Positions 1 to 61,498 of a stretch of DNA of 64,000 nucleotides are shown here, piece after piece. The notes beneath the pieces are model-generated. The model ran no database searches and was not told the origin of the DNA. It was given only the letters and a program-made list of their open reading frames with translations. The position numbers and the translations under genes are program-made. Origin of the DNA: a virus (lineage: Duplodnaviria > Caudoviricetes); IMG/VR virus record IMGVR_UViG_3300021399_000111, positions 1 through 64,000 of that record, one strand, 5' to 3'. The stretch's first letter is position 1; every line of letters starts with the position of its first letter.

Positions 1-70
1 CACGCTGGATTTTCTGCAAGGCTTTGTAGGCTTTTTTAGTCATTCCCTTTTTATTTCCGATGCTTGCCAT
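1..70 (-). CDS. small basic protein, 5' part only (runs off the window)
   Basis: ATG at 70, RBS GAAAGTGAGGG, own promoter TTGATT-17-TATAAT at 124-96; reads MASIGNKKGMTKKAYKALQKIQR... Confidence 0.6.
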   Translation of the reverse strand, partial: MASIGNKKGMTKKAYKALQKIQR

Positions 71-133
71 TGTCTGTCCCTCACTTTCTAAAAAAATTAT
101 ATCAAAAAATTATAAAAAAATCAAGTAGTAATT

Positions 134-286
134 TTATACAAATTTCGGGATCCTAGGGCAGAAAAATTTGTGCAATTTGTCTATTGACAAAAAACTGAAA
201 TGATGATATAATGAAAAACTCGGTGCATTTCCGCAAAGAGCGCCCGGAAATGCGCCGCCAATAAAAAAGGCGCCCCGAAGGGCGCC
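134..286 (+). repeat. composite repeat unit 1 (palindrome + promoter + GC hairpin + terminator)
   Basis: TTATACAAATTT(134)/AAATTTGTGCAA(164); TTGACA(184)-17-TATAAT(207); stem CGGTGCATTTCCG/CGGAAATGCGCCG 221-257; A-run then GGCGCCC-CGAA-GGGCGCC 269-286. Confidence 0.85.
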
Positions 287-298
287 AAAGAGAGGTCA

Positions 299-460
299 TC
301 AGATGCGGATCCGCCTGGCTTCCTGAATCGGGAGCAGAGGCGCCGACTTTTCGGCGGTGACATCCTCAAAGTCAACCGTGTACTTCTGTCCAGAGGCATT
401 AGCCTCGTTCATCGTGCGAACAACAGTGCCATCAGCAAGAACATAGATAAGATTTCTCAT
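299..460 (-). CDS. 53-aa hypothetical protein (below ORF-track cutoff)
   Basis: AAAAGAGAGGTAAACAAA-ATG; MRNLIYVLADGTVVRTMNEANASGQKY...RRIRI, double TGA stop; perfect promoter TTGACA-17-TATAAT at 546-518. Confidence 0.8.
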   Translation of the reverse strand: MRNLIYVLADGTVVRTMNEANASGQKYTVDFEDVTAEKSAPLLPIQEARRIRI

Positions 461-542
461 TTTGTTTACCTCTCTTTTGTGAATTGTTGTGGGGGTGTTC
501 CCCTGTTTTCTAAAATCATTATAGCATTATTTTTTTTATTTG

Positions 543-779
543 TCAACCTCTTTTTACAAGAAAGTTGAAAATAATCAATCCAAGGGTGATTGCAAAGCAG
601 GCGCAATCCTTAACCTTGTCAGCGGTAGGGCGCTCAAGGATAAAGCAACGGATGGCGGAAATGGTGTTACATCCGAGATAGATAAACTGTCCGAGATAAA
701 AATTTTCGCCAACTACGCACTGGGCAACAATCAGACCGATAAGAACAACAAACTGGAGATTTTCAACAAACTTTTTCAT
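543..779 (-). CDS. small membrane protein (78 aa, about 3 hydrophobic segments)
   Basis: Start moved to MKKFVENLQF because of RBS AAAGAGAGGT; hydrophobic stretches. Confidence 0.75.
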   Translation of the reverse strand: MKKFVENLQFVVLIGLIVAQCVVGENFYLGQFIYLGCNTISAIRCFILERPTADKVKDCACFAITLGLIIFNFLVKRG

Positions 780-850
780 ACTCACTACCTCTCTTTCTCT
801 CTCTTGACAATAACAGTATAACACATTACAGGATAAATACAACATACAAA

Positions 851-970
851 TTGCACAAAATTTGGATTGTATTTTTGTGCAAGATTACTATTGACAGAAA
901 ATGCGCGCCATGCCGAGTTATGCACGGCGCGCCAATAAAAAGAGAGGTGCGGAAAGTTTCCGCACCTTTT
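851..970 (+). repeat. composite repeat unit 2 (no -10 box)
   Basis: TTGCACAAAA(851)/TTTTTGTGCAA(872); TTGACA 891 runs straight into GCGCGCC..GGCGCGC hairpin 903-932; terminator AGGTGCGGAAA-G-TTTCCGCACCT 945-967. Confidence 0.85.
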
Positions 971-985
971 AATTTTGGTTCTTTG

Positions 986-1408
986 TTATGCGAGGGAGTA
1001 AAGGCTATCTCTCACCTCGATTTCTACAGAGTAATCATAATTTCTGACAGTAATCTTATAAGGGTCTGAATATCTCTGCTTCAAGAAGCCGCTTGCGCAC
1101 AGTCTACGGCAAGTCGCGGTAGCTCTCTGCACCGTCCAACGGATACCATTTTCTCTAAGATATTCTACAATATCCTTAATCTTACATTCTCCCCCTAACT
1201 TCTCAAAAAATTCCATAACCACGGAGATATCCTTGCCAAGCTGAATCATTTCCATAAAATTACTAGAAGAAACTGAACTGCATGCTGAAGCTTCGGTAAC
1301 GCGAATGTTTCCGCGATGATTGCGCCAATAAAATGCATATCTATCACACATTACCGCAAGTCCAATCATTTCAAGATTCTCTTTTGTCATAAAATTGCTA
1401 ACTTCCAT
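986..1408 (-). CDS. putative winged-helix DNA-binding protein
   Basis: C-terminal KIKDIVEYLRENGIRWTVQRATATCRRLCASGFLKQ looks like a wHTH; RBS spacing favours ATG 1408; promoter TTGACA-17-TAAAGT at 1463-1435. Confidence 0.55.
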   Translation of the reverse strand: MEVSNFMTKENLEMIGLAVMCDRYAFYWRNHRGNIRVTEASACSSVSSSNFMEMIQLGKDISVVMEFFEKLGGECKIKDIVEYLRENGIRWTVQRATATCRRLCASGFLKQRYSDPYKITVRNYDYSVEIEVRDSLYSLA

Positions 1409-1459
1409 TTTCATTTACCTCTCTTTCTATAACTACTTTATCATATAAAGGCTTTTTTG

Positions 1460-1900
1460 TCAAGCCCCTTTTTTAAATTTTTTAATTTGTTTTGTAGTCA
1501 GAAGAGTTGCACCGTCAAATTTGATTTGTACTTCTCTTCCGTCGATATTAATATCACCTTGCATCCAAAAAGGAATTGTATCTTTTTCCCAAGTCTGTCC
1601 ATAATATTCAGTGACAAGTTTCTCGAAAATCTCACCTTTATTATACTTATCATTAACCAACTGGCACTCTGAACCTAAGCACACAGGATTTTTCTTCATA
1701 AGTTGTGCCTTATAGGCTTTCTTGACGCGGAGGCGGAGATTGTCGCCCTGATTGCGGCTTGCCTCCTCTGCGGAAAGATATCTAGGCATGATCTCCGCAA
1801 CATTTACCATATAAATATTTTTATCATAGGTAAAGCCTAAAATATAACTATCCGCCGCCGACTTATCTCTATACCATTTCATCATCGTTTTCTTTGTCAT
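1460..1900 (-). CDS. hypothetical protein (146 aa)
   Basis: ORF with AAAGAGAGGT RBS and promoter TTGCAT-17-TATAAT at 1966-1938; GEIFE...GDINIDGREVQIK is weakly PD-(D/E)xK-like. Confidence 0.7.
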   Translation of the reverse strand: MTKKTMMKWYRDKSAADSYILGFTYDKNIYMVNVAEIMPRYLSAEEASRNQGDNLRLRVKKAYKAQLMKKNPVCLGSECQLVNDKYNKGEIFEKLVTEYYGQTWEKDTIPFWMQGDINIDGREVQIKFDGATLLTTKQIKKFKKGA

Positions 1901-1975
1901 CTGTTAAGTACCTCTCTTTCCCTTACCTTGTAAATACATTATACTCCCCGGTAGGCAAAAATGCAATAGGGCAAA

Positions 1976-2132
1976 TTGCACAAAATTTTGGGATAAAATT
2001 TGTGCATTTTGCTGATTAAAAAGTGCTTGACAAAATGTTAAAGGTATGGTATAATATAAAATTCGGCGCGCCGCGGAGTGGTATGATCGCAGGCGCGCCG
2101 GCAAAAAGAGAGGGCGGTCAAATGACCGCCCT
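1976..2132 (+). repeat. composite repeat unit 3
   Basis: TTGCACAAAATTT(1976)/AAATTTGTGCAT(1996); TTGACA(2027)-17-TATAAT(2050); CGGCGCGCC..GGCGCGCCG 2064-2100; AGGGCGGTCA-AA-TGACCGCCCT 2111-2132. Confidence 0.85.
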
Positions 2133-2564
2133 TAAAGCATCAATAATGTTATCCGTAGCATCTACTGTTGCGCCTAAGTCCCAGGCGGTGCGGTTCTGCT
2201 CTTCATCATCTACGAGAATTCCTTTTCCGTATCTTCTGCAAGTATCTGCTTTCCGCACTCCATAAGGGGTAACGATGATTGCGTCAAGCAAGTCACTTAA
2301 ACAACGCTCCCAGAGCCATTTCCGCTTAACCTTTGCGACAGCCTTGTCATAGTCAGCGTTTCTTTCCTTGCTTCCCCAAGAGATAACACCGAGATTGTAG
2401 CCCCGCATTTTCAAATCAGCGAAAAGCGCAAGCAAATCAATTTCTGCATAAAGCGGGCGGGCTTCCGCATAAGGTCTGACATTGTGAGCCCTAAGATCAT
2501 CAAGCCAGCCATCTACTCCATACAGGTCTGCAATAGTACCATCCATGTCAAACCAAATCCACAT
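2118..2564 (-). CDS. HAD-superfamily phosphatase, 5'(3')-nucleotidase-like
   Basis: Motif I FDMDGT, motif II ISW, K, motif IV LVDD; start MWIWFD after the RBS; promoter TTGCTT-17-TAGTAT at 2618-2590. Confidence 0.8.
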   Translation of the reverse strand: MWIWFDMDGTIADLYGVDGWLDDLRAHNVRPYAEARPLYAEIDLLALFADLKMRGYNLGVISWGSKERNADYDKAVAKVKRKWLWERCLSDLLDAIIVTPYGVRKADTCRRYGKGILVDDEEQNRTAWDLGATVDATDNIIDALRAVI

Positions 2565-2627
2565 ACTGTTTACCTCTCTTTCTGTATACATACTAGCATA
2601 AATTGCAGGATAAAGCAATAGGTAATA

Positions 2628-2763
2628 TTGCACAAAATTTGCTATAAAAATTTGTGCAAATTTACCATTGACAGAAAAAACGCGTCGTGGGGATTCATCC
2701 ACGACGCGCCAAACAAATGTTATTTAATAAAATAAAAAGAGAGGTGGCGGTTTCCCGCCACCT
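2628..2763 (+). repeat. composite repeat unit 4 (no -10 box)
   Basis: TTGCACAAAATTT(2628)/AAATTTGTGCAA(2648); TTGACA 2668; perfect stem CGCGTCGTGG/CCACGACGCG 2681-2708; AGGTGGCGG-TTTC-CCGCCACCT 2742-2763. Confidence 0.85.
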
Positions 2764-2769
2764 GTTATT

Positions 2770-2967
2770 TTAATTCTCCTTTTCAGTGACAACAATACGA
2801 ATGTTATTAACAGCGTCCTCATCGTGATTACCCAGAATCGTATCAAGAAGGTAATCAAGATCTTTAATCTTATCGCCATCATCATACATAACTAAAAAGG
2901 CAAAACTCTTAAGGACTTGTCTTTCTTCTTCTGTTAAATAAAGCGTTGTTTGTGTGTTCATTTTCAT
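2770..2967 (-). CDS. hypothetical acidic protein (65 aa)
   Basis: RBS AAAGAGAGGTG; perfect promoter TTGACA-17-TATAAT at 3023-2995. Confidence 0.75.
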   Translation of the reverse strand: MKMNTQTTLYLTEEERQVLKSFAFLVMYDDGDKIKDLDYLLDTILGNHDEDAVNNIRIVVTEKEN

Positions 2968-3003
2968 AGTTATTCACCTCTCTTTCTATTGTTTATTATA
3001 GCA

Positions 3004-3219
3004 TTAAGATTTTGATTTGTCAAGCTTTTTTCTGCGGTCAATGTGAACAATAATTGCACGGATAATCGCGCAGGTAATTGCTACAGGCCAAAGGATACCC
3101 GCAAGTAAATCCTCAAAATCGGCTATTAAGCAACCGCTACCAATGCTAATAAAATTTATAATGTGAGCGATAATAAAGTAAGCAAGAGCAATGATAAGGA
3201 TAATTTCAAGGGTAGTCAT
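3004..3219 (-). CDS. small membrane protein (71 aa, 2 TM segments, basic tail)
   Basis: Start MTTLEIILII after AAAGAGAGGTAAACAAA; perfect promoter at 3273-3245. Confidence 0.75.
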   Translation of the reverse strand: MTTLEIILIIALAYFIIAHIINFISIGSGCLIADFEDLLAGILWPVAITCAIIRAIIVHIDRRKKLDKSKS

Positions 3220-3279
3220 TTTGTTTACCTCTCTTTCTGAAGTCATTATATCATTTTTATTTTGGAGTGTCAAGAACTT

Positions 3280-3417
3280 TTTTTGAGGTAGTTTCCATCG
3301 GGTGGACAGGCTTTCAAGTGGTAGTTTCGGCTTTGTCAAGTCAATTCCATCACCCTATTTACTTTGTCAGTGCCGATTATCTCTTCAAGAGGTATCCGCT
3401 ACCTTTTCCCTCTCTGT
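3280..3417 (-). ncRNA. candidate structured non-coding RNA (about 140 nt)
   Basis: Promoter TTGACA-17-TATACT at 3452-3424, no credible ORF/RBS downstream; internal complementarities GGTAG/CTACC (x2), TCGGC/GCCGA, GGGTG/CACCC, CTCTT/AAGAG. Confidence 0.45.
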
Positions 3418-3470
3418 GATTATAGTATACTGCTAGCCTTCCCTACTGTCAAGAGAAAGTGTAAAAAATA

Positions 3471-3619
3471 TTGCACAAATTTTGGGATCCTTTGAAGTGA
3501 AAATTTGTGCAAATTGTCTATTGACAAAATGTGGCGGAAATGATATAATTAAAATTTCGGCGCGCGTGGATCGTGCGCGCGGCGCCAAACAAAAAACAGG
3601 GAAGGCTTTAAGCCTTCCC
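3471..3619 (+). repeat. composite repeat unit 5
   Basis: TTGCACAAATTT(3471)/AAATTTGTGCAA(3501); TTGACA(3521)-17-TATAAT(3544); GCGCGCG..TGCGCGC hairpin 3560-3580; GGGAAGGCTT-T-AAGCCTTCCC 3599-3619. Confidence 0.85.
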
Positions 3620-3910
3620 ATAGAGACGCGCCAGAGCGCTTTCCAATTCATCATCGTCGAGGGTGATGAGTTCGATGTCTTCCCCTTCCCAGTCATCTTC
3701 CTCATACTCCTCGCCGAAGTAGACGCCCTGACAGTCAGGACACATGCCAGAGACAAGCGCTTCCCGCTCTGTTGCGGTCAGATAGGGAAAAGCGTTCTGG
3801 ACGAGCGCCCCTCTCTGATAGCGGATGTAGTCCTCTTCCCGCACCGCCACAGAGAAAAGCTTCCCGCAGAAAGGGCAGACAATAGTAAGTTCAAGATTTC
3901 TGTTCATCAT
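3608..3910 (-). CDS. zinc-ribbon protein with acidic tail
   Basis: CPFC...CPDC pair, tail EEYEEDDWEGEDIE; RBS; promoter TTGACA-17-TAAAAT at 3965-3937. Confidence 0.75.
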   Translation of the reverse strand: MMNRNLELTIVCPFCGKLFSVAVREEDYIRYQRGALVQNAFPYLTATEREALVSGMCPDCQGVYFGEEYEEDDWEGEDIELITLDDDELESALARLYGKA

Positions 3911-3972
3911 AGTTATTTACCTCTCTTTCTAGGTCTATTTTACTATTTATTATTGTTAATGTCAAGCACTTT

Positions 3973-4113
3973 TTACAGAACTTTTTCAATAATCTTGACG
4001 CGGTCTCCGCTGGCATCGATCATCACCTTGATAACCACCTGTCCCTTGCTAGCCTTGCAGGCTTCCTTAGCGGTGCTGAAGTTCTTTCCTCTAGTCTTGT
4101 AGTAGATAGCCAT
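3973..4113 (-). CDS. 46-aa basic hypothetical protein (below ORF-track cutoff)
   Basis: AAAGAGAGGAAA RBS; MAIYYKTRGKNFSTAKEACKASKGQVVIKVMIDASGDRVKIIEKVL*; promoter TTGACA-17-TATTAT at 4186-4158. Confidence 0.75.
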   Translation of the reverse strand: MAIYYKTRGKNFSTAKEACKASKGQVVIKVMIDASGDRVKIIEKVL

Positions 4114-4204
4114 TTTATTTTCCTCTCTTTTGCTGTTGTTCTCTTGTTTCTGTAATAATAATACTGCTGTATACTCATTTTGTCAAATAATTTTGATAAA
4201 AAAG

Positions 4205-4379
4205 TTGCATAAATTTCAGGATCAAATACCAGAAATTTTTGTGCAATTTGTCTATTGACAAAATATTGAAACATGTGGTATAATGAAAAATCGCGCGCGA
4301 GAGGACCATTCGCGCGCCATCGCAAGTTGTCATTTTTACATTTGCGCAAAAGAAAAAACTGCGTTTCCGCAGTTTTTCT
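4205..4379 (+). repeat. composite repeat unit 6
   Basis: TTGCATAAATTT(4205)/TTTTTGTGCAA(4236); TTGACA(4255)-18-TATAAT(4279); GCGCGCGA..TCGCGCGC 4293-4317; AGAAAAAACTGCG-TTTC-CGCAGTTTTTCT 4351-4379. Confidence 0.85.
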
Positions 4380-4382
4380 CTC

Positions 4383-4577
4383 TTACTCCTCGAAGTCGTC
4401 CATCTCTTCTGCGTAGTACTGGTCAAGGCTACGGTAGCCAGTCCGCACATACACAACTGCGTTGAGTACCTGTTCCCAAGAGCCTGCCATCAGGTTGCGT
4501 GCCAGATTCAACTCGTCAGCGGTTGCGATTCCAAGTTCTACAATCTGGTCATAATCCATCATTTCCTTCTGTGTCAT
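4383..4577 (-). CDS. hypothetical acidic protein (64 aa)
   Basis: RBS AAGAGAGGTAAAC; promoter TTGACA-17-TAGAAT at 4651-4623. Confidence 0.75.
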   Translation of the reverse strand: MTQKEMMDYDQIVELGIATADELNLARNLMAGSWEQVLNAVVYVRTGYRSLDQYYAEEMDDFEE

Positions 4578-4659
4578 AGTGTTTACCTCTCTTGCTTTTG
4601 TTGTTATCTCTTTGATGATTTTATTCTATCACCTTTTGTTGATTGTGTCAACCCCTTTT

Positions 4660-4872
4660 TTAGTATCCATACTCACCATGCGCCCAAGCGTTCCACCAGA
4701 AGAACTCTGCCATTTCATCATCGTTGTGCTTTACGATAGACCAACCCCAACCCATCTTATCACTCTTTGCAAGTGCCTTTTCTGCCTCTTCCTTGCTGAT
4801 GTGCCCGTAGCCCATGGGAGTGTGTCCCTTTCTGTTGATGATCGAGTATCTGTAATCTTCTACGGTTTTCAT
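4660..4872 (-). CDS. hypothetical protein (70 aa, Trp-rich C-terminus)
   Basis: RBS AGAGAGGTAAACAAA; promoter TTGACA-17-TATTAT at 4942-4914. Confidence 0.75.
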   Translation of the reverse strand: MKTVEDYRYSIINRKGHTPMGYGHISKEEAEKALAKSDKMGWGWSIVKHNDDEMAEFFWWNAWAHGEYGY

Positions 4873-4960
4873 TTTGTTTACCTCTCTGTTGTTGTTTCCT
4901 TGTTTCTGTAATAATAATACATTAAAAAGAAAAAAGTGTCAACACTTTTTAAAGAAAAAG

Positions 4961-5160
4961 TTGCACAAAATACACAGATCTTGTTTGTGCATTTTGTACA
5001 TTTCTTTGATAATTTTTTAACAAGATCCTTTGTGCATGTTGTACACATTTTAGGATCATTTAGCCTGTATCTTTGTGCAATTTGCCTATTGACAAAAGTT
5101 GAAAGATGTAGTATAATGGAAGAACGGCGCTTGACGTGATAATGCGCTCGCCTGCGCGCC
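4961..5160 (+). repeat. composite repeat unit 7 (terminal, extra half-sites)
   Basis: Half-sites TTGCACAAA 4961, TTTGTGCAT 4984 and 5029, TTGTACAC 5039, TTTGTGCAA 5072; TTGACA(5089)-17-TATAAT(5112); GGCGC..GCGCC 5126-5160. Confidence 0.8.
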
Positions 5161-5541
5161 TAGCAAATTATTCCAGTTTAATTATAACTATTTGATTTTC
5201 AACTATTCTGTTCTATTGTTTATTCTATCTTGTTTGTTTGCTTTTGATACGCCTGTATTTATTTGTTATCTTTTTCTATCATTTTGTAGAGGGGTCTGTT
5301 TTTAGAGAGGGTCTCTGACAAAGCTCGAATCTACGTAGATTCCTGGTACTTTTTTCCGGGGGGAGTATTTTCGGGAAAATTTAAATGGAGATTGTAAAAA
5401 TCTTTTTGCCTCCACAACTCCCCCACCAAAAATTTTTTCTATTTTAAAAAACGAACACTATTTTAGGCTTTTAAAAAACGATATATATTTTCTCATTTCC
5501 CGCAAAAATATACCGCATGCATATTTAATTTCCGTTTTCGC

Positions 5542-43519: not shown

Positions 43520-46045
43520 ATGGGAACATTAAATAGAGTATATATAAATTCCCCTGAGAACAATGGTGAATTTGAATTTCAAGCACAAAATATTGATTAT
43601 ACAATACCAGGTTCTACTATTAAAACATCTGTTGCTTCTGTTTTAAAAAATTTAACTGAGCAAACTGGTGATGAAGGACTTGCGCCTACAGACCATTCAT
43701 CTAAAACCTCAGAATATGGTATGGCTTCTACTACTAAATATGGACATATTAAGATAGGTGAAGGATTAATAGGTCCGCAAGGCGGCGGTGGGTTTGATAC
43801 ATTGCCTTTTAATTTAAAAAGTGGTAGAAATCAATGTGCCACTGATGGTAAAGATACTTATATTTTTATTGCAGATAATGATTCTACTATTGAATTTTGG
43901 ATACTTGATCAAAATGGATTCTCTAAAATACGTGTTGTGCCTCAAATTTTAGATAATTTTGATGGATATGTAATATATATTAGTAATACTTTTACATTTG
44001 TATACGGCAATTTTAGTATAAGTTATGATCTTTCTACAAGAAATTGGAGAAGCAGTGTTACACTTCCTTTTAATATTAATCAAAATAATAGTTTTATAAC
44101 ATCTGTTTCACAAAATAGCGGTATTATTACATTTTATTCAAATGATAATAATGGATATATTTTCTTAGATCCTTTAAGTGGATCTGTATTACCATTTTCA
44201 ACCTTAGAAATATCAACACCAGCTTTTCAGCTAACTGGAAATTTTGATAATAAGTCTACAGTATTTATTTTTGATTCTTATACTACAACAATGTGGCTTT
44301 TAAATATAAATACTGGAGTTTGGGATAGTGCTCCGCTTACGACTTTAGGTGGAATGGTATCTACTACTTCATATTATTATGATCATTTTTTTTATATTAT
44401 TGGACGGACAACGAGTAAGCCCTCATCTTTAGCTTTTATAAAACAATATGGGTCACGACAATTAGATAGCTCTATTAGATCATTAGGCTCAGTACTATTT
44501 ATTAATGATAAATTTTACATTTTCCAGGGAGAAAAAGTTGTTGGCGGAGCTGCAACATCTATTTATTCGCATTCTAATGAATATTCATCATCATGGGAAA
44601 GGGATAGTTTGTCTATTGAATCAAATAGTTCTGGAATCACTCCTACTGGACCTGATCCTCGCCCAGCCCCTGACCCAGATCCAAATGCATTAACAATAGA
44701 TCCAGAGTATGCATTGGATTCTGATGATGAGAGATTGGAAGATGAAAGAACTCCATTCCCGCATGCATCTCTTGATACTCGATATGGAGCTAGTACTATT
44801 GAATTATATGGTCATAGTAAATTAGTTGATGATTACGCTAATGTAGGTCTTGATATAAATGGTGAAAGTAGTGTTACAATTTCAGAATTATCCACGACTA
44901 TATGGCAAAGACATAATGTCGCAGTAAATAAGAATGGCGAAATTTTAGCAATAAGTTCATTAGATTTTAATGATGATCAATGGACTCCCGCATATTCTTT
45001 TTATTCATCTACAAAGCCAATTGTAGAAAATCAAAGACACCCAGTAATTTATGATTTTGATAGTTGTCAAGTAGAATGTTTAAATGATGATACTTTTATT
45101 ATTGTAGGTTCTTGTGAACCTTCTTATGCAGGACTTTATATGTATAAAATAACAAATGATCAATGGACTCGTTTATCAGATTTACCTTTTGATTTTTGCA
45201 ATGATCTTTATTCTGGACAAATTGCAAAAGATACTTTTAAATCATCTTCTAGAGATTATGAAGATTCTGTTTTAATTATGTTATATAATAGCAATTTACC
45301 TGGATATGTATTTTATTGGTATAATGAAGAAGATGGATTAGTGTCAGCTTTTGAAGAAGGAGATTATCTACCTAGTTCATATGTAGATGATTCTTCTGGC
45401 AATACTGCATATTTATATAGTAATAATTTAACACTAGTAATAACACCTGGTTATTATGTTGTTTTAGATATATATAATAGACGCATGTGGAAACATACAA
45501 TGGATTATTCCGGAGAATGGCATTATTCAGGTCATCTTTTACCAATACCTGATTCTTATTCAAATACTTATCCAAGTGCTCTTGTTTATGGCGGGGATGA
45601 TATAAATATGGCTTATTTGCATATAATTGGCAGAAATAATGATAATGGTGGAATTTTTCATGGTACATTTGATTTATTTAATATGAATTGGGATGAAGCA
45701 AACACTGAAAATATTTCTTTAAGAGGATATGATTCTTATAATGGTGAATATTCTTTTATTTTAAAAGATAATAAATTATATTTATTTACAGACACAGATC
45801 AAAATACTACTAAGATTTATTCATGCAGAGCAGACACAATGCAGCCTGTATGGGTGGAAGATAGTATTACTTTTGATATAAAACCTAGTTCGAAAACTTG
45901 TGGCGGAAATGGCATATCTGCATCTTCTTATTCTGTTAATATGTTTAAGAATGATACTTTAAAACAGATAGCTACTATTATGCCAGCAAGTAATTTTACA
46001 GATGAATTACATAGAAGAATGGAAAAGTATATAAAATCTTCTTGA
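43520..46045 (+). CDS. receptor-binding / tail fibre protein with two inserted beta-propeller-like modules
   Basis: Same shaft motifs as 42779-43504, interrupted by Kelch-like beta-rich segments. Confidence 0.6.
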   Translation: MGTLNRVYINSPENNGEFEFQAQNIDYTIPGSTIKTSVASVLKNLTEQTGDEGLAPTDHSSKTSEYGMASTTKYGHIKIGEGLIGPQGGGGFDTLPFNLKSGRNQCATDGKDTYIFIADNDSTIEFWILDQNGFSKIRVVPQILDNFDGYVIYISNTFTFVYGNFSISYDLSTRNWRSSVTLPFNINQNNSFITSVSQNSGIITFYSNDNNGYIFLDPLSGSVLPFSTLEISTPAFQLTGNFDNKSTVFIFDSYTTTMWLLNINTGVWDSAPLTTLGGMVSTTSYYYDHFFYIIGRTTSKPSSLAFIKQYGSRQLDSSIRSLGSVLFINDKFYIFQGEKVVGGAATSIYSHSNEYSSSWERDSLSIESNSSGITPTGPDPRPAPDPDPNALTIDPEYALDSDDERLEDERTPFPHASLDTRYGASTIELYGHSKLVDDYANVGLDINGESSVTISELSTTIWQRHNVAVNKNGEILAISSLDFNDDQWTPAYSFYSSTKPIVENQRHPVIYDFDSCQVECLNDDTFIIVGSCEPSYAGLYMYKITNDQWTRLSDLPFDFCNDLYSGQIAKDTFKSSSRDYEDSVLIMLYNSNLPGYVFYWYNEEDGLVSAFEEGDYLPSSYVDDSSGNTAYLYSNNLTLVITPGYYVVLDIYNRRMWKHTMDYSGEWHYSGHLLPIPDSYSNTYPSALVYGGDDINMAYLHIIGRNNDNGGIFHGTFDLFNMNWDEANTENISLRGYDSYNGEYSFILKDNKLYLFTDTDQNTTKIYSCRADTMQPVWVEDSITFDIKPSSKTCGGNGISASSYSVNMFKNDTLKQIATIMPASNFTDELHRRMEKYIKSS

Positions 46046-50883: not shown

Positions 50884-53800
50884 CTATTCTTCATAATCTT
50901 CTTCAATTATATCTTGCCCAGTATAACGATCATGTCTTATTTTAATTTCATCACCAACAACCTCTTCTATAAGATATAATTGATGTCCTTCAGTATTCTT
51001 ATATGTTTTACCTACAAAAGTATCCTCTCTGCGGAAGCCTGTTACCATTAACATTTTGCCTCTTGTAAACCAACCTTTTTCAACAACTTTCTTGGTTCCA
51101 TCCGGCTGAATTTGACTAATTTGACGCTTAAACATTGCATAATAATCTCTAGTAAACTTTACATTTACGACACCTGTTGTTGTTAATAATGTAATTGAAC
51201 AACGAGTATCATCTTTCGCTAAAACAGTTCCCATTATTCTATGTAATTTATAAATGGGAATTTTATTGTTTCCTCTCTTATAGAAATAATCAATTTCAGG
51301 TTCAGAAGACAAATCATTAAAATTTACAACACCATACTTAAATTCATTAACTTCTGCAAGTTCATGTTTTCCATAATAAAAACATAAAGAATCCATTTCC
51401 CATTTTGAAGTATTACCACTTGCATATTTATCCCAAAGATCTTTAAATAATACAAAGTTATATTTTTGCAACATTTCTTCTTGGTTATTTTTTAACCAAT
51501 CTCTTGCCACATCCATATATTTTTGATAGATTTTATCCCATTTAGTTTGAAGAATACAAGTTTTTCCGTTTATCACTTCAAGATTTTCTATGTAATCGGA
51601 TAGAAATCTATTAAAAAACATATCACAAGATTCATCAAAAATAAAATAATTTTGCCATTTTTTATTTGCTTTTAAATATTTTGTAAAATTATATATTCTT
51701 ATTTGCATTTCTAATTCTTCTGGAATTAATCCATATTGAATTAAACCATTAAAATTTATTAAATTTAATTTTTTCTTTGGCTCACAAATTTTAAGAATAT
51801 AATAAACCATAATTTCTTGTCTGTTCTTGAATGAAGTTTCAATTTCATCAAAGGCGCCTGCTTTAATCAGATTTATCATAACTGTTTTTGTAAGCGGGCA
51901 ACGAGCAAGAAAATCTTTAATGCCATTATACGGTCTATTTTGAATGATTTTTTCAATTGAATCATTACTCATTCTATTAATTGCTTTAAGACCATATAGA
52001 ATACGATTATGTTCAACATCAGGTTTAAAACCATAATCTGATGTATTAATATTAACTAAAGATACTTTAATACCTTTAGATTTAATTGTAGAAATTGCTT
52101 TTGCAATTTTTGCATAATCAGTTGTTTTTTTCTTTTTCCCAAATCTATCTTTTAAATCCTCATATTCATAATCTGGATCTTCTTTATCATAGATATTAAC
52201 AATTTCTTCATTATCTTCTAGGCTACCGCTATTCACAACTAAGCAGGCAGTATCCCAATATATAGGATTCCATTTAGTTGCAATATATGCAGTTTGAAAT
52301 CCAATAAAAGAATATGCTAACGCATGAATTACACTAAAGGAATAACCCATCTGAGGTCCAATGCCGCATTCCCAAATGTATTTACCTAACTCTGGACGTT
52401 TTGCTTGAGATAATACCTGCTCATGAAGTGCAGGAATTTTATCCATTTGTTTTTTACCAACAATTTTTCTTGCAGCATTTGCATCTTTAAGACTAAAACC
52501 GCAAATTGCTGGATCCATTAACATTGTCATTAATTGCTCTTGGCTAGGCGGTACTCCATGAGATTTAAGAAAATGTGGTTTTAAAGACTTAATTTCTTCA
52601 TCAGTAAGTCCATACTTATACATTTCATCATACCAAAGATTAATATTATTCTTAAATCGAACATATTTATCCATTGGCTGTTCTCCGCCATCTTCACCTG
52701 TCATAAGTCTCATTAAACCATTTGCATCTGCCATTTCAAGCATACTACTAGGTTTAATTTTCTTTGCCGCCTGGCTACCAACAGCAGAATCAAACTGAAA
52801 TAAATCAAGAACTTTTACATCTTGAATATTTTTCCATACATCTTTATCTTCAATAGGAAGAACACTTGGATGAAAATATTTATTATAAATTTCTCTTAAA
52901 GTTAAATCTTTTTCAATTTCTCCATATTCTTGAAGAAATTTAATTGCTTGAACTAGTTTATCTTGTACTTCTGTTACGAGGAAATCATATTTTGTCATTC
53001 CTGCAGCTTCGCACATATGAAGGTCATATTGAGTTATTACATCTCCACTAGGCGTTCTCATAAAACATCCATGCTCATATGGATCTTCATCAAACATAAT
53101 AACACCAGATGCATGGCTACTACGCTTATTGATAATTCCCTCAATACCCATCATAATGTTTAAAAGCCCAGGATATTGATTTACTTCGCTAAGAAAACTA
53201 ATGACTGGTTTTCTACCTTTGGATTCATCACCATATACGACGGTATGCAAGTCCCATAAAAATCCTCTTTCTTGGGGAATAAGACTTGATAAATATTGGG
53301 CGGTATCAACGTCGATTCCATCGGGGTACTCGTCACTACGATAGCCTCTACAAGCTGTTTGTATAGCTGATTTACTAGTTTCTGTCCCGAAGGTTGCAAT
53401 GAGAGTACATCCACAATTTCGTCTAGTGACATTGTCGATGTCGGCATTAAAATTTCTTCCTCTTTCATCTTTTATCCTTTGTAAAATTAATGGTCTTTTA
53501 CTAGGGCATAAATCAAGGTCAATATCACCTAGTTCAAATCTTTCTTTATTTAAATATCTCCAGAATGGAAGATTCCATTCTATTGGATCAAGCTGTGTGA
53601 TACCTAAGAGATAATGATTAAGTCCTGAACAAGAAGAACCACGTCCCGCGCCTACCATACTTCCGCATTCCCAAAATAAATCTACATAATGTTGAAGTGT
53701 GATAGGATATGAAAACATATTTGTATTTAATGCTTTTCCTATCGTTCGTTTAATATCAGCTTCTTCTTCAAGTCTTTCATAGTAAGGATCTGATTTTTTA

Positions 53801-54888
53801 TGATTATATGGAACAGTATCAATTAATGTTTCTATTTTATTAACACATTCATTTACCCAATATCTTTCATATATATCATCAGATGTAAACATTGATGCTA
53901 ATACTGGATAATGTTCATACCAATAATCTGAGATTTTTTTCTTTTCATAGTTCCTTACTTTAACCTTAGGAATTTGCTGGCTATGTAAAAGACTATAATC
54001 TTCTATTTTATTATAAATCTCCATACTATTTTTACACATTGTATCATATAAATCAATAATAGATGGAGCTAAATTTTCTTTTATTTCTTCTTCTGTCTGA
54101 AGATAAGCATATTCATAAAATTGTGCAACTTCACGCTCTCCACCTTTAGAATTAAGGTATGCTTCATGCACATATCTATCTTCTTTAGTGAGGTAATGAG
54201 CATCACAACCTATTACCATTTTAACGCCAAACACAACAGAAAGTTCAGCAATCTTTTTATTAACAATAATTTGTTCTTTATTTGCGGCGGGTGCTACTTC
54301 AAAATAAAAGTCATCACCAAACAGTTCTTTGCACCAAAGAACGAAATCAATAATTTGCTGTTTCTTTTTTTCTGCGGTTATGGCGTCACCAATCTTTCGT
54401 ACAGCTTCTAACTCAAGGATGCATGAACCAAGTTCCCCACCTATACAAGCAGTTGTAGCAATAAGATGACCAGGATTTTCTTTTATAACCATTTCCAAAT
54501 CTTCTTTAAGTGTTGGTACCCGCTCAAGACCGCGATCAAAATAAGAATTAAGCCAAGCGATTGAGGACAATCTTCTTAATTGTTTATGACCTTCTGCATC
54601 TTTAGAAATCAAAATAAAGTGATAATATTTTTGTCCAGAATCTCTAGTATTTGTGAGATAAATCTCATTTCCTATTGCTATTTTAAAATCTGGATACTTT
54701 TCTTTTATCTCTTGTGCATATTTATTGATTTCGATTGAATCACTAAGACATTCATGCTCAGTTATTGCGATTCCTGCAAGTCCAATCTCAATCGCATAAT
54801 CAATAAGATTTTTAGGTTTATTAATTGCATCTAAAAGTCTAAGATTTGAATAGTGTGTATGACTATGCAATTCCATTCTTAAAGACAT
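50884..54888 (-). CDS. dnaE: DNA polymerase III alpha subunit (family C)
   Basis: PHP domain HSHTHYS..AITEH..DAHY; GAGRGS; GDIDLD; HASGV; KYDFL; YSFSVIHA; promoter TTGACT-17-TATAAT at 54951-54923. Confidence 0.95.
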   Translation of the reverse strand: MSLRMELHSHTHYSNLRLLDAINKPKNLIDYAIEIGLAGIAITEHECLSDSIEINKYAQEIKEKYPDFKIAIGNEIYLTNTRDSGQKYYHFILISKDAEGHKQLRRLSSIAWLNSYFDRGLERVPTLKEDLEMVIKENPGHLIATTACIGGELGSCILELEAVRKIGDAITAEKKKQQIIDFVLWCKELFGDDFYFEVAPAANKEQIIVNKKIAELSVVFGVKMVIGCDAHYLTKEDRYVHEAYLNSKGGEREVAQFYEYAYLQTEEEIKENLAPSIIDLYDTMCKNSMEIYNKIEDYSLLHSQQIPKVKVRNYEKKKISDYWYEHYPVLASMFTSDDIYERYWVNECVNKIETLIDTVPYNHKKSDPYYERLEEEADIKRTIGKALNTNMFSYPITLQHYVDLFWECGSMVGAGRGSSCSGLNHYLLGITQLDPIEWNLPFWRYLNKERFELGDIDLDLCPSKRPLILQRIKDERGRNFNADIDNVTRRNCGCTLIATFGTETSKSAIQTACRGYRSDEYPDGIDVDTAQYLSSLIPQERGFLWDLHTVVYGDESKGRKPVISFLSEVNQYPGLLNIMMGIEGIINKRSSHASGVIMFDEDPYEHGCFMRTPSGDVITQYDLHMCEAAGMTKYDFLVTEVQDKLVQAIKFLQEYGEIEKDLTLREIYNKYFHPSVLPIEDKDVWKNIQDVKVLDLFQFDSAVGSQAAKKIKPSSMLEMADANGLMRLMTGEDGGEQPMDKYVRFKNNINLWYDEMYKYGLTDEEIKSLKPHFLKSHGVPPSQEQLMTMLMDPAICGFSLKDANAARKIVGKKQMDKIPALHEQVLSQAKRPELGKYIWECGIGPQMGYSFSVIHALAYSFIGFQTAYIATKWNPIYWDTACLVVNSGSLEDNEEIVNIYDKEDPDYEYEDLKDRFGKKKKTTDYAKIAKAISTIKSKGIKVSLVNINTSDYGFKPDVEHNRILYGLKAINRMSNDSIEKIIQNRPYNGIKDFLARCPLTKTVMINLIKAGAFDEIETSFKNRQEIMVYYILKICEPKKKLNLINFNGLIQYGLIPEELEMQIRIYNFTKYLKANKKWQNYFIFDESCDMFFNRFLSDYIENLEVINGKTCILQTKWDKIYQKYMDVARDWLKNNQEEMLQKYNFVLFKDLWDKYASGNTSKWEMDSLCFYYGKHELAEVNEFKYGVVNFNDLSSEPEIDYFYKRGNNKIPIYKLHRIMGTVLAKDDTRCSITLLTTTGVVNVKFTRDYYAMFKRQISQIQPDGTKKVVEKGWFTRGKMLMVTGFRREDTFVGKTYKNTEGHQLYLIEEVVGDEIKIRHDRYTGQDIIEEDYEE

Positions 54889-54949
54889 GACATTTATCCC
54901 CTTTTATCATTTTTCTATATATATTATATCATATTTTTTAAAAAAAGTC

Positions 54950-54981
54950 AAAAAAAGAGGGGGAAGACTGAAGTCTTCCCC
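54950..54981 (-). terminator. terminator of the flagellin gene
   Basis: GGGGAAGAC-TTCA-GTCTTCCCC-CTCTTTTTTT on the minus strand. Confidence 0.8.
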
Positions 54982-54998
54982 AAATTTTATAAAATTGA

Positions 54999-55811
54999 TT
55001 AGCCAAGTAATGCAAGAACACCTGCATTAGCTTGATTAGACTGAGCCAACATAGCTTGTCCCGCCTGCGCAAGAATATTCGCATTTGAATACTTAACCAT
55101 TTCTGTTGCCATATCAGCATCACGAATCTGGCTTTCCGCAGAAGTAGTATTTTCAACAACATTATTAAGATTGTTGATAGTATGCTCAAGACGATTCTGG
55201 ACAGCACCAAGATCAGATCTTTGGCTACTAACAGTCTCTAAAGCAGTTTTAATAGAACTAATAGCTGCAGTAGCACCATCATAATCAGATACATCTAAAG
55301 AATCAACACTAAGAGTTCCAGCATCCATTGCCCCAATAGAAATCTCGATGTTTTGTCCGCCTTCAGCTCCGACCTGAAGTTTCTTACCAGTGAAGTTACC
55401 ATCTAACAAATTCTGCTCATTGAAAGTTGTTGTTGAAGCAACACGGCTAATTTCAGATGCAAGAGCATCGATTTCAGACTGAATGTACCCGCGATCAGTA
55501 CTCATATTAGTGTCATTTGCAGCTTGAGTGGCGAGTTCATTCATTCTCTGAAGCATATCATGTACTTCATTTAATGCACCTTCCGCAGTTTGAACAGCGG
55601 AAATTCCATCTTGGGCATTTCTTACCGCTTGAGTTAATCCTCTTACCTGTCTACGCATCTTTTCAGAAATAGCTAAACCAGCCGCATCATCAGCAGCACG
55701 GTTAATTCTATAACCAGAAGAGAGCTTTTCTGTTGACTTAGATAAAGTAGATTGAGTTAAGCCAAGCATTCTGTTAGAATTCATTGCGGTTAAATTGTGT
55801 TGAATAGTCAT
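54999..55811 (-). CDS. fliC: flagellin (270 aa, short Lachnospiraceae-type, FliC/Hag)
   Basis: IQHNLTAMNSNR, EKLSSGYRINRAADDAAGLAISEKMR, QTAEGAL, LQRMNELATQAAN, RSDLGAVQNRLEH, SQIRDADMA, AMLAQSNQ. Confidence 0.97.
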   Translation of the reverse strand: MTIQHNLTAMNSNRMLGLTQSTLSKSTEKLSSGYRINRAADDAAGLAISEKMRRQVRGLTQAVRNAQDGISAVQTAEGALNEVHDMLQRMNELATQAANDTNMSTDRGYIQSEIDALASEISRVASTTTFNEQNLLDGNFTGKKLQVGAEGGQNIEISIGAMDAGTLSVDSLDVSDYDGATAAISSIKTALETVSSQRSDLGAVQNRLEHTINNLNNVVENTTSAESQIRDADMATEMVKYSNANILAQAGQAMLAQSNQANAGVLALLG

Positions 55812-55820
55812 AATTTTTTT

Positions 55821-55928
55821 CCTCCTTGAAAATAAAATACCACATCCTTGTGGCAGTTAATATATTATAAAACTCTTATGAGTTTTATTTTCTATAATTA
55901 TTATAACAAAAATTTTATCTTTTGTCAA
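55821..55928 (-). promoter_or_regulatory. flagellin sigma-A promoter and leader with CsrA-type sites
   Basis: TTGACA(55928)-17-TATAAT(55905); 9-bp inverted repeat 55867-55888; hairpin GCCACAAGGATGTGGT 55854-55839; SD CAAGGAGG. Confidence 0.8.
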
Positions 55929-55959: not shown

Positions 55960-56394
55960 TTAAATCTGTCCATATGGATCCCACTCTCTACAATTAAAAA
56001 ATTTTTGAAGCGCCCAACGCTCACTACATAGATTTAGTGGAGATTCATATACTATTAAAGCAATAGTATTAGCATTAAATTTATTACAGCAATGCTCAAA
56101 TGCCCATAAAGTTTTTTCTTTATCAACCAATGTTTTTAATAATTCTTCATATTCAATCATTGTTGGACAAAAAGGGGCTTTGCTTTTATCTTCACAAGGA
56201 CAAGTATGTTTTCCATAGCGTTGAACTATAAGCGGCTCATACCGAAGCCCGCATACTATTCCTCTCTTGTCTATATAATATTCTTTTCCTTCTGGCGGGC
56301 GGTACCAAACTGGATCACTAAGTGCAGTTGACACTGGAATAATATTAGGTGTAAAATTTCTAATTTGATAAAAATAACTTGTTACAATTTTCAT
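55960..56394 (-). CDS. DUF488-like protein
   Basis: IVTSYF...P.WY...ALIVYE.P..CSER pattern. Confidence 0.5.
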   Translation of the reverse strand: MKIVTSYFYQIRNFTPNIIPVSTALSDPVWYRPPEGKEYYIDKRGIVCGLRYEPLIVQRYGKHTCPCEDKSKAPFCPTMIEYEELLKTLVDKEKTLWAFEHCCNKFNANTIALIVYESPLNLCSERWALQKFFNCREWDPYGQI

Positions 56395-58277: not shown

Positions 58278-59435
58278 TTATTTTCTTGAGTCATAATATT
58301 CTTTTTCATTTTCTGGTGTTAATAAAAATCTTGTTGTTTCAAGTTTAAGATCATTTAAATCATATTCTGCATCGTAAGGAATGCGAATAATTGGAATATT
58401 ATTTTCAAAGCAATAATGATTTTTAATTAAATCACTTTGTCTTGTTCGTTCAAAATGTTCTTGAGTATCCCATCCACTATTTTTATAAAAGAAATGTTGA
58501 CTTCCATCAAATTCAATAATATATTGATTATTTATATAAAAATCAAAAGATCTTTTTCTTCCATTAGTTGGATATAATTTGTTCAATTTTTCATCTATGT
58601 ATTCTCTTATAAAAGGTAAATGTAATTGAGATAACATATTATTAATATATTCTTCATTATAAGAAATATTTCTTCCACATCCACAACTTTTAATGCTTCC
58701 ATTTGCTAATCTAGTACTAGCTACAATATGATGAGGAGTACCACAATCACATTTACAATCGTATAAAATACTTCCTCCAGAAGAATATTGATTATTAAAT
58801 TTTGACAATACAGTTAATTTACCAAATCTATCTCCTGGATTAATTTGTAAATATTTTCTACAACCACAACTTTTTACTGCTCCTGTGGTTAAATCTCTAG
58901 TAGAAATATTTTTTTCTTTACCGCATTTACATTTACAATGCCAATATCTTTGTCCATTTTTATTAAAAGCAAAATTAATAACTGTTAAATCATTATAAAT
59001 TTGATTAGTTAAATCTTCTAAAGGTTTACCATGATATACATGAGATAAACAACCACATGATTTGACTTCTCCAGATGTTAAATTTCCATTGCTAACCCAT
59101 GTTTCATTTCCACAATCACAAATACATTTAATATAAGTTTTTCCATTTTGTACTTTTCTTTCTGAGGTGCAAGTTAGAATTCCAAAACGTAAATTAGTAT
59201 AATCTTTTTGTTGAGCTTTATGTTGACATTCTTCACATTGTTGAGAAAATTCTCCCCCTCTAAGACGACTATAATTACCACATTTGCATTGAGCAACCCA
59301 CATAGGACGTCTTGGGTCTTTTGTTCTATATAATATTATCCAATTATTAATTTTTTGATTAGTATAATCTGTAGCTCGTCCAACTGGAATAGGCTCCCAT
59401 ATTAATTGAGCTTCTTTTAATGTTTTAATTACCAC
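58278..59435 (-). CDS. putative free-standing homing endonuclease (CxC Zn repeats plus Vsr-like nuclease)
   Basis: Four repeats of DxT..RFG.LTV...CxCxCG...L..G.VKSCGC; C-terminal FDFYI...IEFDGSQHF...D..KN.YC....I.IIRIPY. Confidence 0.75.
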   Translation of the reverse strand: MVIKTLKEAQLIWEPIPVGRATDYTNQKINNWIILYRTKDPRRPMWVAQCKCGNYSRLRGGEFSQQCEECQHKAQQKDYTNLRFGILTCTSERKVQNGKTYIKCICDCGNETWVSNGNLTSGEVKSCGCLSHVYHGKPLEDLTNQIYNDLTVINFAFNKNGQRYWHCKCKCGKEKNISTRDLTTGAVKSCGCRKYLQINPGDRFGKLTVLSKFNNQYSSGGSILYDCKCDCGTPHHIVASTRLANGSIKSCGCGRNISYNEEYINNMLSQLHLPFIREYIDEKLNKLYPTNGRKRSFDFYINNQYIIEFDGSQHFFYKNSGWDTQEHFERTRQSDLIKNHYCFENNIPIIRIPYDAEYDLNDLKLETTRFLLTPENEKEYYDSRK

Positions 59436-60625: not shown

Positions 60626-60697
60626 TTTTATCCTCTTTCATTTTTCTTACATAATAATTATATCATAATTTTTATAAAAAGTCAAAAAAGGGAGACC

Positions 60698-61498
60698 TTA
60701 GTCTCCCTTTAAAACTATATCTAACAACTCTTCTGATAAATATCTCTCAAGAATTTTTAAATTATCCTGTCCAGTTCCTTTAAAAAATTCTTCTGCCACA
60801 CCTCCGCCGATAGCACCAAGTGTATCCATATCACAGGGAAGTGACATTACATTTCTCATAAAACCTTCCCAATTATTTGACTCAAGGAAACATCTCATTG
60901 CGGGAGCCACTGAACCTTGACAGGTAACATCCCATTTATAAATATCTCTCATTTCGCTTAAATCTAATGAAATAGGATATTTATATTTATCTATATTACT
61001 GTAAAATCTTTTTATATAATCAAAGATTTCTACTTTTGTTTTTCCATGCTTTGCCGCCCATACACAAACTGCGGTAACGCATGCTCCTTTGATTCCTTCA
61101 GAATGGTTATGTGTCACCATTGCAGAGCGTTTAGCTTGTTCAACAACATCATTTATATCATCATAATATTCGCCAATGAAAGAGCATCGCATGGCGGAAC
61201 CATTGCCAAAGGATCCGTAAGGTTGAGGTTTAGGAGAATGAAGCCACTCTTTAAATTTAGGACCGTAGCCTGAAGTGTACTTATTTCCAAATTCGTAATA
61301 AGCATTAAAAAAATCTGGATTCTTTGGGTTCTTGAGTATTGCATCTTTTGTTGCAACACTTAAGATAGTATCATCAGTAAATCTACATTTATCAGTAAAA
61401 AGAGGCACATTCTGCCAATCTAAATCTGTTGGACGCATACGAGAAAACTCATACTGAGAACCGCTTATATCACCGAGTATCGCTCCTATTAATGCCAT
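60698..61498 (-). CDS. ADP-ribosylglycohydrolase (DraG/ARH family)
   Basis: GAILGDISG, FTDDT, GNGSAMR, VTH, DMDTLGAIGG. Confidence 0.9.
   Translation of the reverse strand: MALIGAILGDISGSQYEFSRMRPTDLDWQNVPLFTDKCRFTDDTILSVATKDAILKNPKNPDFFNAYYEFGNKYTSGYGPKFKEWLHSPKPQPYGSFGNGSAMRCSFIGEYYDDINDVVEQAKRSAMVTHNHSEGIKGACVTAVCVWAAKHGKTKVEIFDYIKRFYSNIDKYKYPISLDLSEMRDIYKWDVTCQGSVAPAMRCFLESNNWEGFMRNVMSLPCDMDTLGAIGGGVAEEFFKGTGQDNLKILERYLSEELLDIVLKGD

Follow-up and report, generated by a model that had tools for sequence, protein, structure and literature searches.

The phage of the IMG/VR record IMGVR_UViG_3300021399_000111, referred to here as WIN, carries two genes for flagellar filament proteins: the flagellin gene fliC and the filament cap gene fliD. 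Its genome of 141,935 bp has direct terminal repeats and is rated complete, and the phage presumably infects Lachnospiraceae of the gut or rumen. The fliC gene lies in the window, which is the stretch of 64,000 nucleotides formed by bases 1-64000 of the record; fliD lies elsewhere in the genome (Table 1). Both Pfam domains of the 270-aa FliC are whole. Flagellin_N (PF00669) covers residues 3-141 (profile 1-139/139, E 5e-46, 156.5 bits, cut-off 26.6), and Flagellin_C (PF00700) covers residues 185-269 (profile 2-86/86, E 9e-26, 90.4 bits, cut-off 23). The protein also aligns without gaps over residues 1-269 with 9hpz_A (E 8e-101). Since the 9hpz entry holds a flagellin of 270 aa in a filament of 22 chains, the compact flagellin type with only the D0 and D1 domains makes real filaments. 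WIN FliC may be exported by the flagellar type III system and polymerize into a filament. Its termini are intact, and just 11 residues are absent from all ten bacterial sisters compared. In the alignment, the differences from these sisters are denser in a short central, surface-exposed segment. The D1 segment LQRMNELATQ, which we take from the literature to be the TLR5-binding region of flagellin, is present and identical to that of the bacterial sisters. Among cellular flagellins, the nearest all come from Lachnospiraceae, many of them from metagenome-assembled genomes of the ruminant gut. The closest bacterial FliCs are 82-83% identical and are encoded in canonical flaG-fliD-fliS-flgN-fliC operons (L161, P0005, and P0006). 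Flagellins of 250-299 aa are indeed typical of this family, making up 110 of the 121 flagellins in the Lachnospiraceae loci.

The fliC gene is truly phage-encoded. The ENA assembly L006 is identical to WIN across 19 kb, including the fliC junctions. In L005, a 145-kb contig of a further phage that comes from a different sample, the flanking DNA is 71-81% identical, and fliC stands at exactly the same place; a third relative (L002) has the gene layout of WIN. The G+C content at third codon positions (GC3) is 0.25 in WIN fliC, which is within the range of the phage genes (0.13-0.28) and below that of the nearest bacterial fliC genes (0.50-0.66). The fliC genes of WIN and L005 differ at about 85 nucleotides (~10%), with only 4 of the 270 residues changed. 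The synonymous divergence (dS) is 0.64 and the nonsynonymous divergence (dN) 0.008, which gives a dN/dS of 0.013. For nine neighbouring genes of the same two phages, the amino-acid identity is 68-86% and the dN/dS is 0.07-0.21. The shared junctions in three independent assemblies exclude a chimeric assembly, and the low dN/dS excludes neutral decay; both had been raised as possible objections in an earlier note, which was made from the window sequence alone. The gene is intact and maintained by selection, and it is not a recent pickup. Its place in a complete phage genome, its phage flanks, and the purifying selection that acts on it in more than one phage are as expected of an auxiliary gene. 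The earlier note had described an intact, full-length flagellin with its own promoter and terminator, placed between phage genes and sharing their AT-rich codon usage, and all of this was borne out.

The fliC transcription unit is of phage type. Its promoter matches TTGACA-17-TATAAT at every position, and the gene ends in a G+C-rich terminator stem with a T-run. Between positions 184 and 60685 of the window there are 16 perfect TTGAC[AT]-N17-TATAAT promoters, nearly all with the TG extension, where 0.15 would be expected by chance. The units headed by such promoters include the portal, tail-fibre, DnaE, and helicase units, that is, structural as well as replication genes. Because the same promoter type heads these phage units, fliC belongs to the promoter set of the phage itself. 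The phage seems to depend on the host sigma-A polymerase throughout. The fliC promoter of L005 is identical in type to that of WIN. The fliC terminator is homologous in L005 and L002, where the stem changes are compensatory, and the promoter of the DnaE unit, which resembles the promoter at 60657-60685, is kept in both phages. Seven of the 16 perfect promoters, on both strands, lie in the first 5 kb of the window (1-5200), a region with a G+C content of 0.38-0.42 versus about 0.30 elsewhere in the window.

The leader of fliC differs from those of bacterial fliC genes in its promoter and resembles them in its RNA features. Among 113 bacterial fliC leaders, the CCGATA box of sigma-28 was found in 94, a hairpin with GGA in the loop in 96, and the AAGGAGG sequence in 95; none has a perfect sigma-A promoter. 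In the five leaders of the phage clade, the hairpin and the Shine-Dalgarno sequence are always present, two have a perfect sigma-A promoter, and CCGATA occurs in none. Accordingly, no TAAA-N-CCGATA late-flagellar (sigma-28/SigD) promoter was found before WIN fliC. The hairpin shows covariation across 81 phage and bacterial fliC leaders, with 127 double-sided changes versus 42.5 expected. Its covariation score is 0.63 versus 0.19 expected; none of 500 shuffles scored as high, and slid controls gave at most 0.15. No Rfam family matched the fliC leader. The partner switch of Hag, FliW, and CsrA in B. subtilis is an established model. As in the B. subtilis hag type, the WIN leader has two GGA sites, one in the hairpin loop and one over the Shine-Dalgarno sequence, which by analogy with this model are candidate CsrA sites. 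The Hag-FliW structures 5maw and 6gow are among the structure matches of WIN FliC, and csrA and fliW are adjacent in all five of the closest Lachnospiraceae genomes. WIN has a similar leader before fliD as well, which is not known to be part of the Bacillus model. An extended -10 promoter, a GGA-loop hairpin, and ACAAGGAGG were found in 6/6 phage fliD leaders examined, whereas bacterial fliD lies inside an operon without such a leader.

The fliD gene of WIN is one intact open reading frame (ORF), with FliD_N (PF02465) at residues 10-103 (63.6 bits) and FliD_C (PF07195) at residues 201-445 (101 bits). Its GC3 is 0.15, compared with 0.50-0.72 in the bacterial fliC and fliD homologues, and its dN/dS is 0.16. 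A 257-aa gene lies on one side and a DUF2828/DUF7788 gene on the other, and genes for an RNA ligase, PhoH, and an endolysin are near. The complete WIN genome gave no match for FliS, FliW, CsrA, FlgM, or a sigma-70-family factor, and no homologue of FlaG, FliS, or FlgN of the most host-like bacterial operon. Therefore, the phage carries exactly two filament proteins, both of which are secreted and distal. The earlier note was right that the window holds no other flagellar gene; this does not extend to the genome, where fliD is intact, and fliC is not the stand-alone unit it was taken for, since a phage fliD accompanies it throughout the clade. At genome positions 94287-100075 (L167:16287-18647 and L168:1954-3075), which are a few kb away from fliD, there are two large proteins of the BspA-type leucine-rich repeat/DUF285 kind together with a family-2 glycosyltransferase; these genes are conserved in the L005 phage, and a link with flagellin glycosylation or host binding is conceivable.

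Table 1. Features of the fliC and fliD loci of WIN (window positions, except for fliD).
Feature	Position	Strand	Description
fliC	54999..55811	(-)	complete 270-aa D0/D1-only flagellin; open frame of 270 codons
Sigma-A-type promoter of fliC, extended -10	55900..55928	(-)	TTGACA-17-TATAAT with TG, 12/12
Leader hairpin with AGGA loop, candidate CsrA site 1	55838..55855	(-)	covariation in 81 leaders
Shine-Dalgarno AAGGAGG, candidate CsrA site 2	55821..55827	(-)	overlaps the ribosome binding site; columns invariant in the 81-leader alignment
Intrinsic terminator of fliC	54960..54981	(-)	flush with the fliC stop; 9-bp stem, 6 G-C pairs, T-run
Promoter of the DnaE unit	54923..54951	(-)	3' border of the fliC cassette; 11/12 with TG
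DnaE-type DNA polymerase III alpha	50884..54888	(-)	3' neighbour of fliC; Pfam PHP, DNA_pol3_alpha, finger, HHH_6
orf144	55960..56394	(-)	conserved phage gene, 5' border of the insertion slot; no Pfam or PHROG match
fliD (filament cap)	genome 89459-90832	(+)	intact 457-aa ORF, outside the window, 34 kb from fliC

The other neighbours of fliC are also phage genes, encoding a DUF3310 protein, NrdD, a helicase, and RecJ. The window further contains terminase, portal, virion, and tail-fibre genes. An 841-aa ORF at 43520-46045 (+) closes the structural block; it has no PHROG match and no Pfam family on record. In the replication block, a gene of the ADP-ribosylglycohydrolase family (60698-61498, (-)) is present in the relatives L090, L091, and L100 and absent from L005. 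A 385-aa ORF with repeated Cys motifs (58278-59435, (-)) matches HNH/homing-endonuclease PHROGs; it occurs only in some relatives and at differing places, and it probably encodes a mobile endonuclease. No near DNA match to 18 kb of the window was found among GenBank phages. When 20 kb of the phage DNA was searched against 401 Lachnospiraceae genomes for a host, only short, chance-level matches were obtained; the best of them, 33 nt in L174, lies inside a coding sequence with no repeat array there. The complete WIN genome has no Phage_integrase or Recombinase domain (tyrosine integrase or large serine recombinase). WIN is probably lytic and apparently non-integrating, and it might still use another mode of lysogeny.

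Relatives of WIN were collected with DnaE as the anchor, which gave 57 related viral loci. The slot between orf144 and DnaE contains fliC in WIN, in L005 (99% identical), in L002 (72%), and in L093 (42%, a longer flagellin). In L090, L094, L096, and L100, orf144 abuts DnaE directly, and there is no fliC. The slot is also an insertion hot spot, as other inserts of 0.5-1.4 kb occupy it in the fliC-less L095, L097, L098, L102, and L122. In G002, G006, and L157, fliC occupies a second slot, which is bordered by a 95-aa ORF and the gene for the RNA ligase and lies at a distance of 3-7 kb from fliD. Upstream of fliC in G002 and G006 (L153:1380-1440 and L151:1390-1440) there is a tRNA-like T-arm (GGTTCGAATCCCTACC), for which neither ARAGORN nor Rfam called a tRNA; the element may be tRNA-like or Y-RNA-like. 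A 124-nt Rfam tRNA match, possibly interrupted, was also seen at 917-1040 of L151. In several relatives (L115, L116, L121, L131, L142, and L143), the DnaE match is 5-6 kb long, not 4 kb, or is split, an indication that the polymerase gene contains inteins, introns, or inserted endonuclease genes.

Both fliC and fliD are present in WIN, the L005 phage (fliD 86% identical to that of WIN), G002, G006, and L157. Both are missing from eight relatives with a completeness rating of 99% or more, and among the sufficiently complete genomes, none carries one without the other. In the DnaE tree, every carrier falls within one supported subclade of 15 members, inside which the L090/L100 lineage lacks both genes. 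A scan of IMG/VR with a single FliD sequence gave no matches, and an alignment-based scan identified only G002, G006, L165, and one weak match. At the fliD locus of the relatives without the pair, examined with 1.5-kb flanks, G001 lacks even the DUF2828 neighbour. Two IMG/VR contigs considered as carriers of phage-borne flagellins (G017 and G018) were rejected, since their flagellin belongs to a host flank beside an integrase and is surrounded by bacterial genes for GH53, a bile-salt hydrolase, a two-component system, and HflX. The IMG/VR contigs L004 (IMGVR_UViG_3300029592_000091) and L003 contain such ordinary bacterial DNA (with GH53 with LysM, the bile-salt hydrolase, the two-component system, and HflX) next to an integrase; in both, the flagellin gene belongs to the host and lies where a prophage borders on it.

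Phylogenetic analyses showed that the two genes have contrasting histories. In the FliC tree (134 rows), the flagellins of phages are nested within four separate groups of bacterial ones. A tree constrained to keep them in a single clade is worse by 127.8 log-likelihood units (approximately unbiased test, p 8.6e-6), so that the phage FliCs are polyphyletic. L002 shares with WIN the homologous terminator and the flank with the DnaE promoter, while its FliC has a dN of 0.23, about ten times that predicted from the WIN-L005 rate. This combination points to allele replacement inside a conserved cassette. As the synonymous sites between WIN and L002 are saturated (dS 1.1-1.7), the replacement cannot be dated by dS. 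The FliDs in phage context, in contrast, are split from the named bacterial FliDs by a branch with 100% support and lie in a clade of 26 sequences, all of 452-463 aa, and the phage fliD locus is always at the same position. FliD is monophyletic, diverged, and at a fixed locus; therefore, it is an old, vertically inherited resident that goes back to one old capture. If FliC has to co-polymerize with the filament already present, this would account for its tracking of host alleles, which FliD does not show. The host-like, polyphyletic FliC and the monophyletic FliD fit such a need to match the filament of the current host.

The phage genes are intact, paired, conserved, phage-resident, and rewired. 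On balance, they probably constitute a phage-borne kit of two genes for the flagellar filament of infected cells, and they most likely build or regrow the swimming filament of the host during infection. We infer export, assembly, CsrA binding, and a fitness benefit from the sequence data. According to this proposal, the main RNA polymerase of the host would transcribe fliC and fliD from the consensus promoters of phage type, which would make both genes independent of the late flagellar sigma factor of the host. The leaders with two GGA sites, kept before fliC and added before fliD, might tie translation to active export via CsrA and FliW. Host chaperones and the host flagellar export apparatus would then deliver the phage FliC and FliD to the tips of the host's own flagella. 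There, the cap would permit growth or regrowth, and the flagellin would extend the filament. The infected cell might thus stay motile, or gain a filament specified by the phage, after late flagellar expression of the host fails; the phage might profit from sustained motility, from an altered surface of the filament, or from both. The retention of a full-length FliC that looks competent for export and polymerization, together with FliD, both behind leaders of the CsrA type, favours real filament assembly.

Several points weigh against this proposal. The dS of 0.64 for fliC is below the 0.9-1.7 of its neighbours, and this low value could partly reflect a later exchange between WIN and L005, and not constraint alone; the excess of silent changes stands despite the possible exchange. 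The phage FliD shares just 34% identity with the 520-aa FliD from the most host-like operon, and its compatibility with host filaments is an assumption. In the comparison with the phage FliC, the nearest Lachnospiraceae flagellins stand in for the FliC of the actual host. Filaments grow slowly compared with the duration of a typical lytic cycle. Finally, the co-occurrence of fliC and fliD is suggestive and not statistical proof, because the few independent presence/absence events make it a weak statistic by itself.

Other explanations of the pair were also considered. The phage filament might be assembled in the same way and serve another benefit, namely receptor masking or superinfection exclusion, if an altered filament surface makes flagellotropic phages, including WIN or its competitors, adsorb poorly to infected cells or debris. 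It is established that flagella serve as receptors for phages (discussed in PMC13418256), the FliC differences are concentrated in the central surface-exposed segment, and the FliC alleles turn over between phages. This explanation is nevertheless unlikely. The phage-specific positions are only 11 and are evenly spread, and the near invariance of FliC between WIN and L005 is the opposite of an arms-race signature. Filaments made before infection would stay on the cell, and there is no indication that WIN is flagellotropic; in the one system tested, Enterobacter, exclusion was ruled out (PMC13418256). The pair could instead act without assembly, as a regulatory decoy: phage FliC, with FliD, would titrate FliW and the chaperones FliS and FliT, or the leader RNA would titrate CsrA, so that host flagellar synthesis is reprogrammed or shut down. 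The two candidate CsrA sites, the very strong promoter, the FliW-CsrA pair of the closest Lachnospiraceae genomes, and the lack of phage-carried chaperones are compatible with a decoy. For this purpose, however, the C-terminal binding region would suffice, whereas the extreme purifying selection covers the whole length of FliC, including the N-terminal helices for export and polymerization, and a full FliD is maintained with it. Moreover, because the phage mRNA keeps its CsrA sites, titration of FliW would be self-limiting under the B. subtilis partner-switch model, which makes FliW/CsrA titration less likely as the main purpose. A decoy as the explanation of the pair is quite improbable. The earlier note had offered four roles without ranking them; the pairing of full-length FliC and FliD favours those based on assembly, FliW/CsrA titration falls back as the main purpose, and TLR5/NAIP modulation would seem secondary in a probably lytic phage of bacteria from the ruminant gut.

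Modulation of animal innate immunity, by phage filaments or released flagellin that alter TLR5/NAIP sensing, is very unlikely, although the conserved LQRMNELATQ segment is present and the FliCP flagellin of Enterobacter phages lowers TLR5 signalling (PMC13418256). The Enterobacter effect maps to a large outer domain that is absent from the 270-aa WIN FliC, and the D1 segment does not differ from that of the bacterial sisters. With no integrase or recombinase found, long-term lysogenic conversion by WIN is doubtful, and a benefit is hard to see for a lytic phage. FliC and FliD could also be parts of the virion, such as fibres, as folds of flagellar outer domains occur in a capsid auxiliary protein of a crassvirus (PMC10172136). 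This is highly improbable: both are complete flagellar proteins whose D0 termini polymerize only once they have passed through type III export, the two genes are in separate transcription units away from the structural module, and the swapping of FliC alleles with those of hosts is unexpected for a virion part. The variable insertion slot and the promoter-plus-terminator structure typical of morons might suggest that fliC is not a functional trait of the phage and arose from a chimeric assembly or from host DNA transduced recently, or that it is a passenger in decay. This explanation is extremely improbable given the identical junctions in independent assemblies from other samples, the phage-like codon composition and phage-type promoter, the dN/dS of 0.013 over a dS of 0.64, and the conservation of the partner fliD across the clade.

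The first descriptions of phage-encoded flagellins date from 2024-2026 and concern temperate Enterobacter phages, in which an RNA-guided repressor silences the gene of the host. FliCP of these prophages is the only studied precedent of a phage flagellin. It replaces the host filament, raises motility via its large outer domain, and lowers TLR5 signalling; it does not act in superinfection exclusion (PMC13418256). Like WIN, the phage FRphi with its FliCP-TldR system has a full-length flagellin with a conserved D0/D1 core, which in FRphi is exported and replaces the host filament (PMC13418256; PMC10705468). WIN differs from FRphi in several respects. Its host is presumably a Firmicute, and its flagellin is accompanied by FliD. 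The WIN flagellin has no outer domain, whereas in FRphi the motility and TLR5 effects are due to this domain. FRphi is temperate, while WIN has no integrase or recombinase. There is no TldR or TnpB beside WIN fliC, where the neighbours, orf144 and DnaE, are unrelated to them; in the WIN genome, the only match to the TnpB zinc-ribbon family scores 13 bits and falls in an ORF of 134 aa that is 73 kb away. WIN would escape host control by promoter replacement, whereas FRphi represses the host gene. In a survey of the rumen virome, 'lytic-specific fliC and fliD' appear in the list of auxiliary genes, but their pairing, evolution, and regulation are not analysed (PMC11740651).

The closest likeness of WIN fliC is to the Lachnospiraceae flagellins (L161, P0005, P0006, and 9hpz), with which it shares, besides the 82-83% identity, the length, the architecture, and the leader hairpin with its Shine-Dalgarno sequence. 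The Lachnospiraceae loci differ from WIN in their higher GC3, in their sigma-28 promoter in place of sigma-A, in their lack of phage flanks, and in the length of FliD, which is 518-520 aa against 457 aa in WIN with its 34% identity. An unannotated, intact flagellin of 301 aa, 50% identical to that of WIN, was also found in the Bacillus phage EZ-2018a (CP027117.1, genus Jenstvirus; L169:10001-10906). Its neighbours are genes for a Rap-family phosphatase, ribonucleotide reductase (RNR), ThyX, and a C5 methylase. No FliD was found in the EZ-2018a record.

Cyanophages carry psbA, a host-derived gene for a component in high demand, which is under purifying selection and is repeatedly exchanged with host alleles. 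The logic of psbA and of the WIN pair is alike, whereas the machine, the pathway, and the extracellular assembly site differ, and there is no homology. As a wider and more tentative idea, it is possible that this clade of large, apparently non-integrating Lachnospiraceae phages keeps a kit for filament repair and rebuilding, made up of an ancient cap at a fixed locus and a flagellin swapped with hosts, under phage promoters and host CsrA/FliW control, with swimming, or a filament specified by the phage, as a selected part of the lytic programme. If so, the kit would be the motility counterpart of the photosynthesis genes of cyanophages.

The WIN case appears to be a second, independent solution, in phages of Firmicutes: there is no repressor, the cap travels along, the promoter is replaced, the control leader is kept, and the alleles turn over with the hosts. 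The vertical FliD and the swapped FliC also provide a natural experiment on the compatibility of cap and filament. Since some flagellin genes are viral, the finding would also matter for the interpretation of flagellin signals in metagenomes and serology. If the pair builds filaments in infected cells, motility would join the host functions that lytic phages sustain. There would then be consequences for the movement of infected Lachnospiraceae, a family with a major part in fibre degradation and butyrate production, and for the dispersal of their viruses in the gut or rumen.

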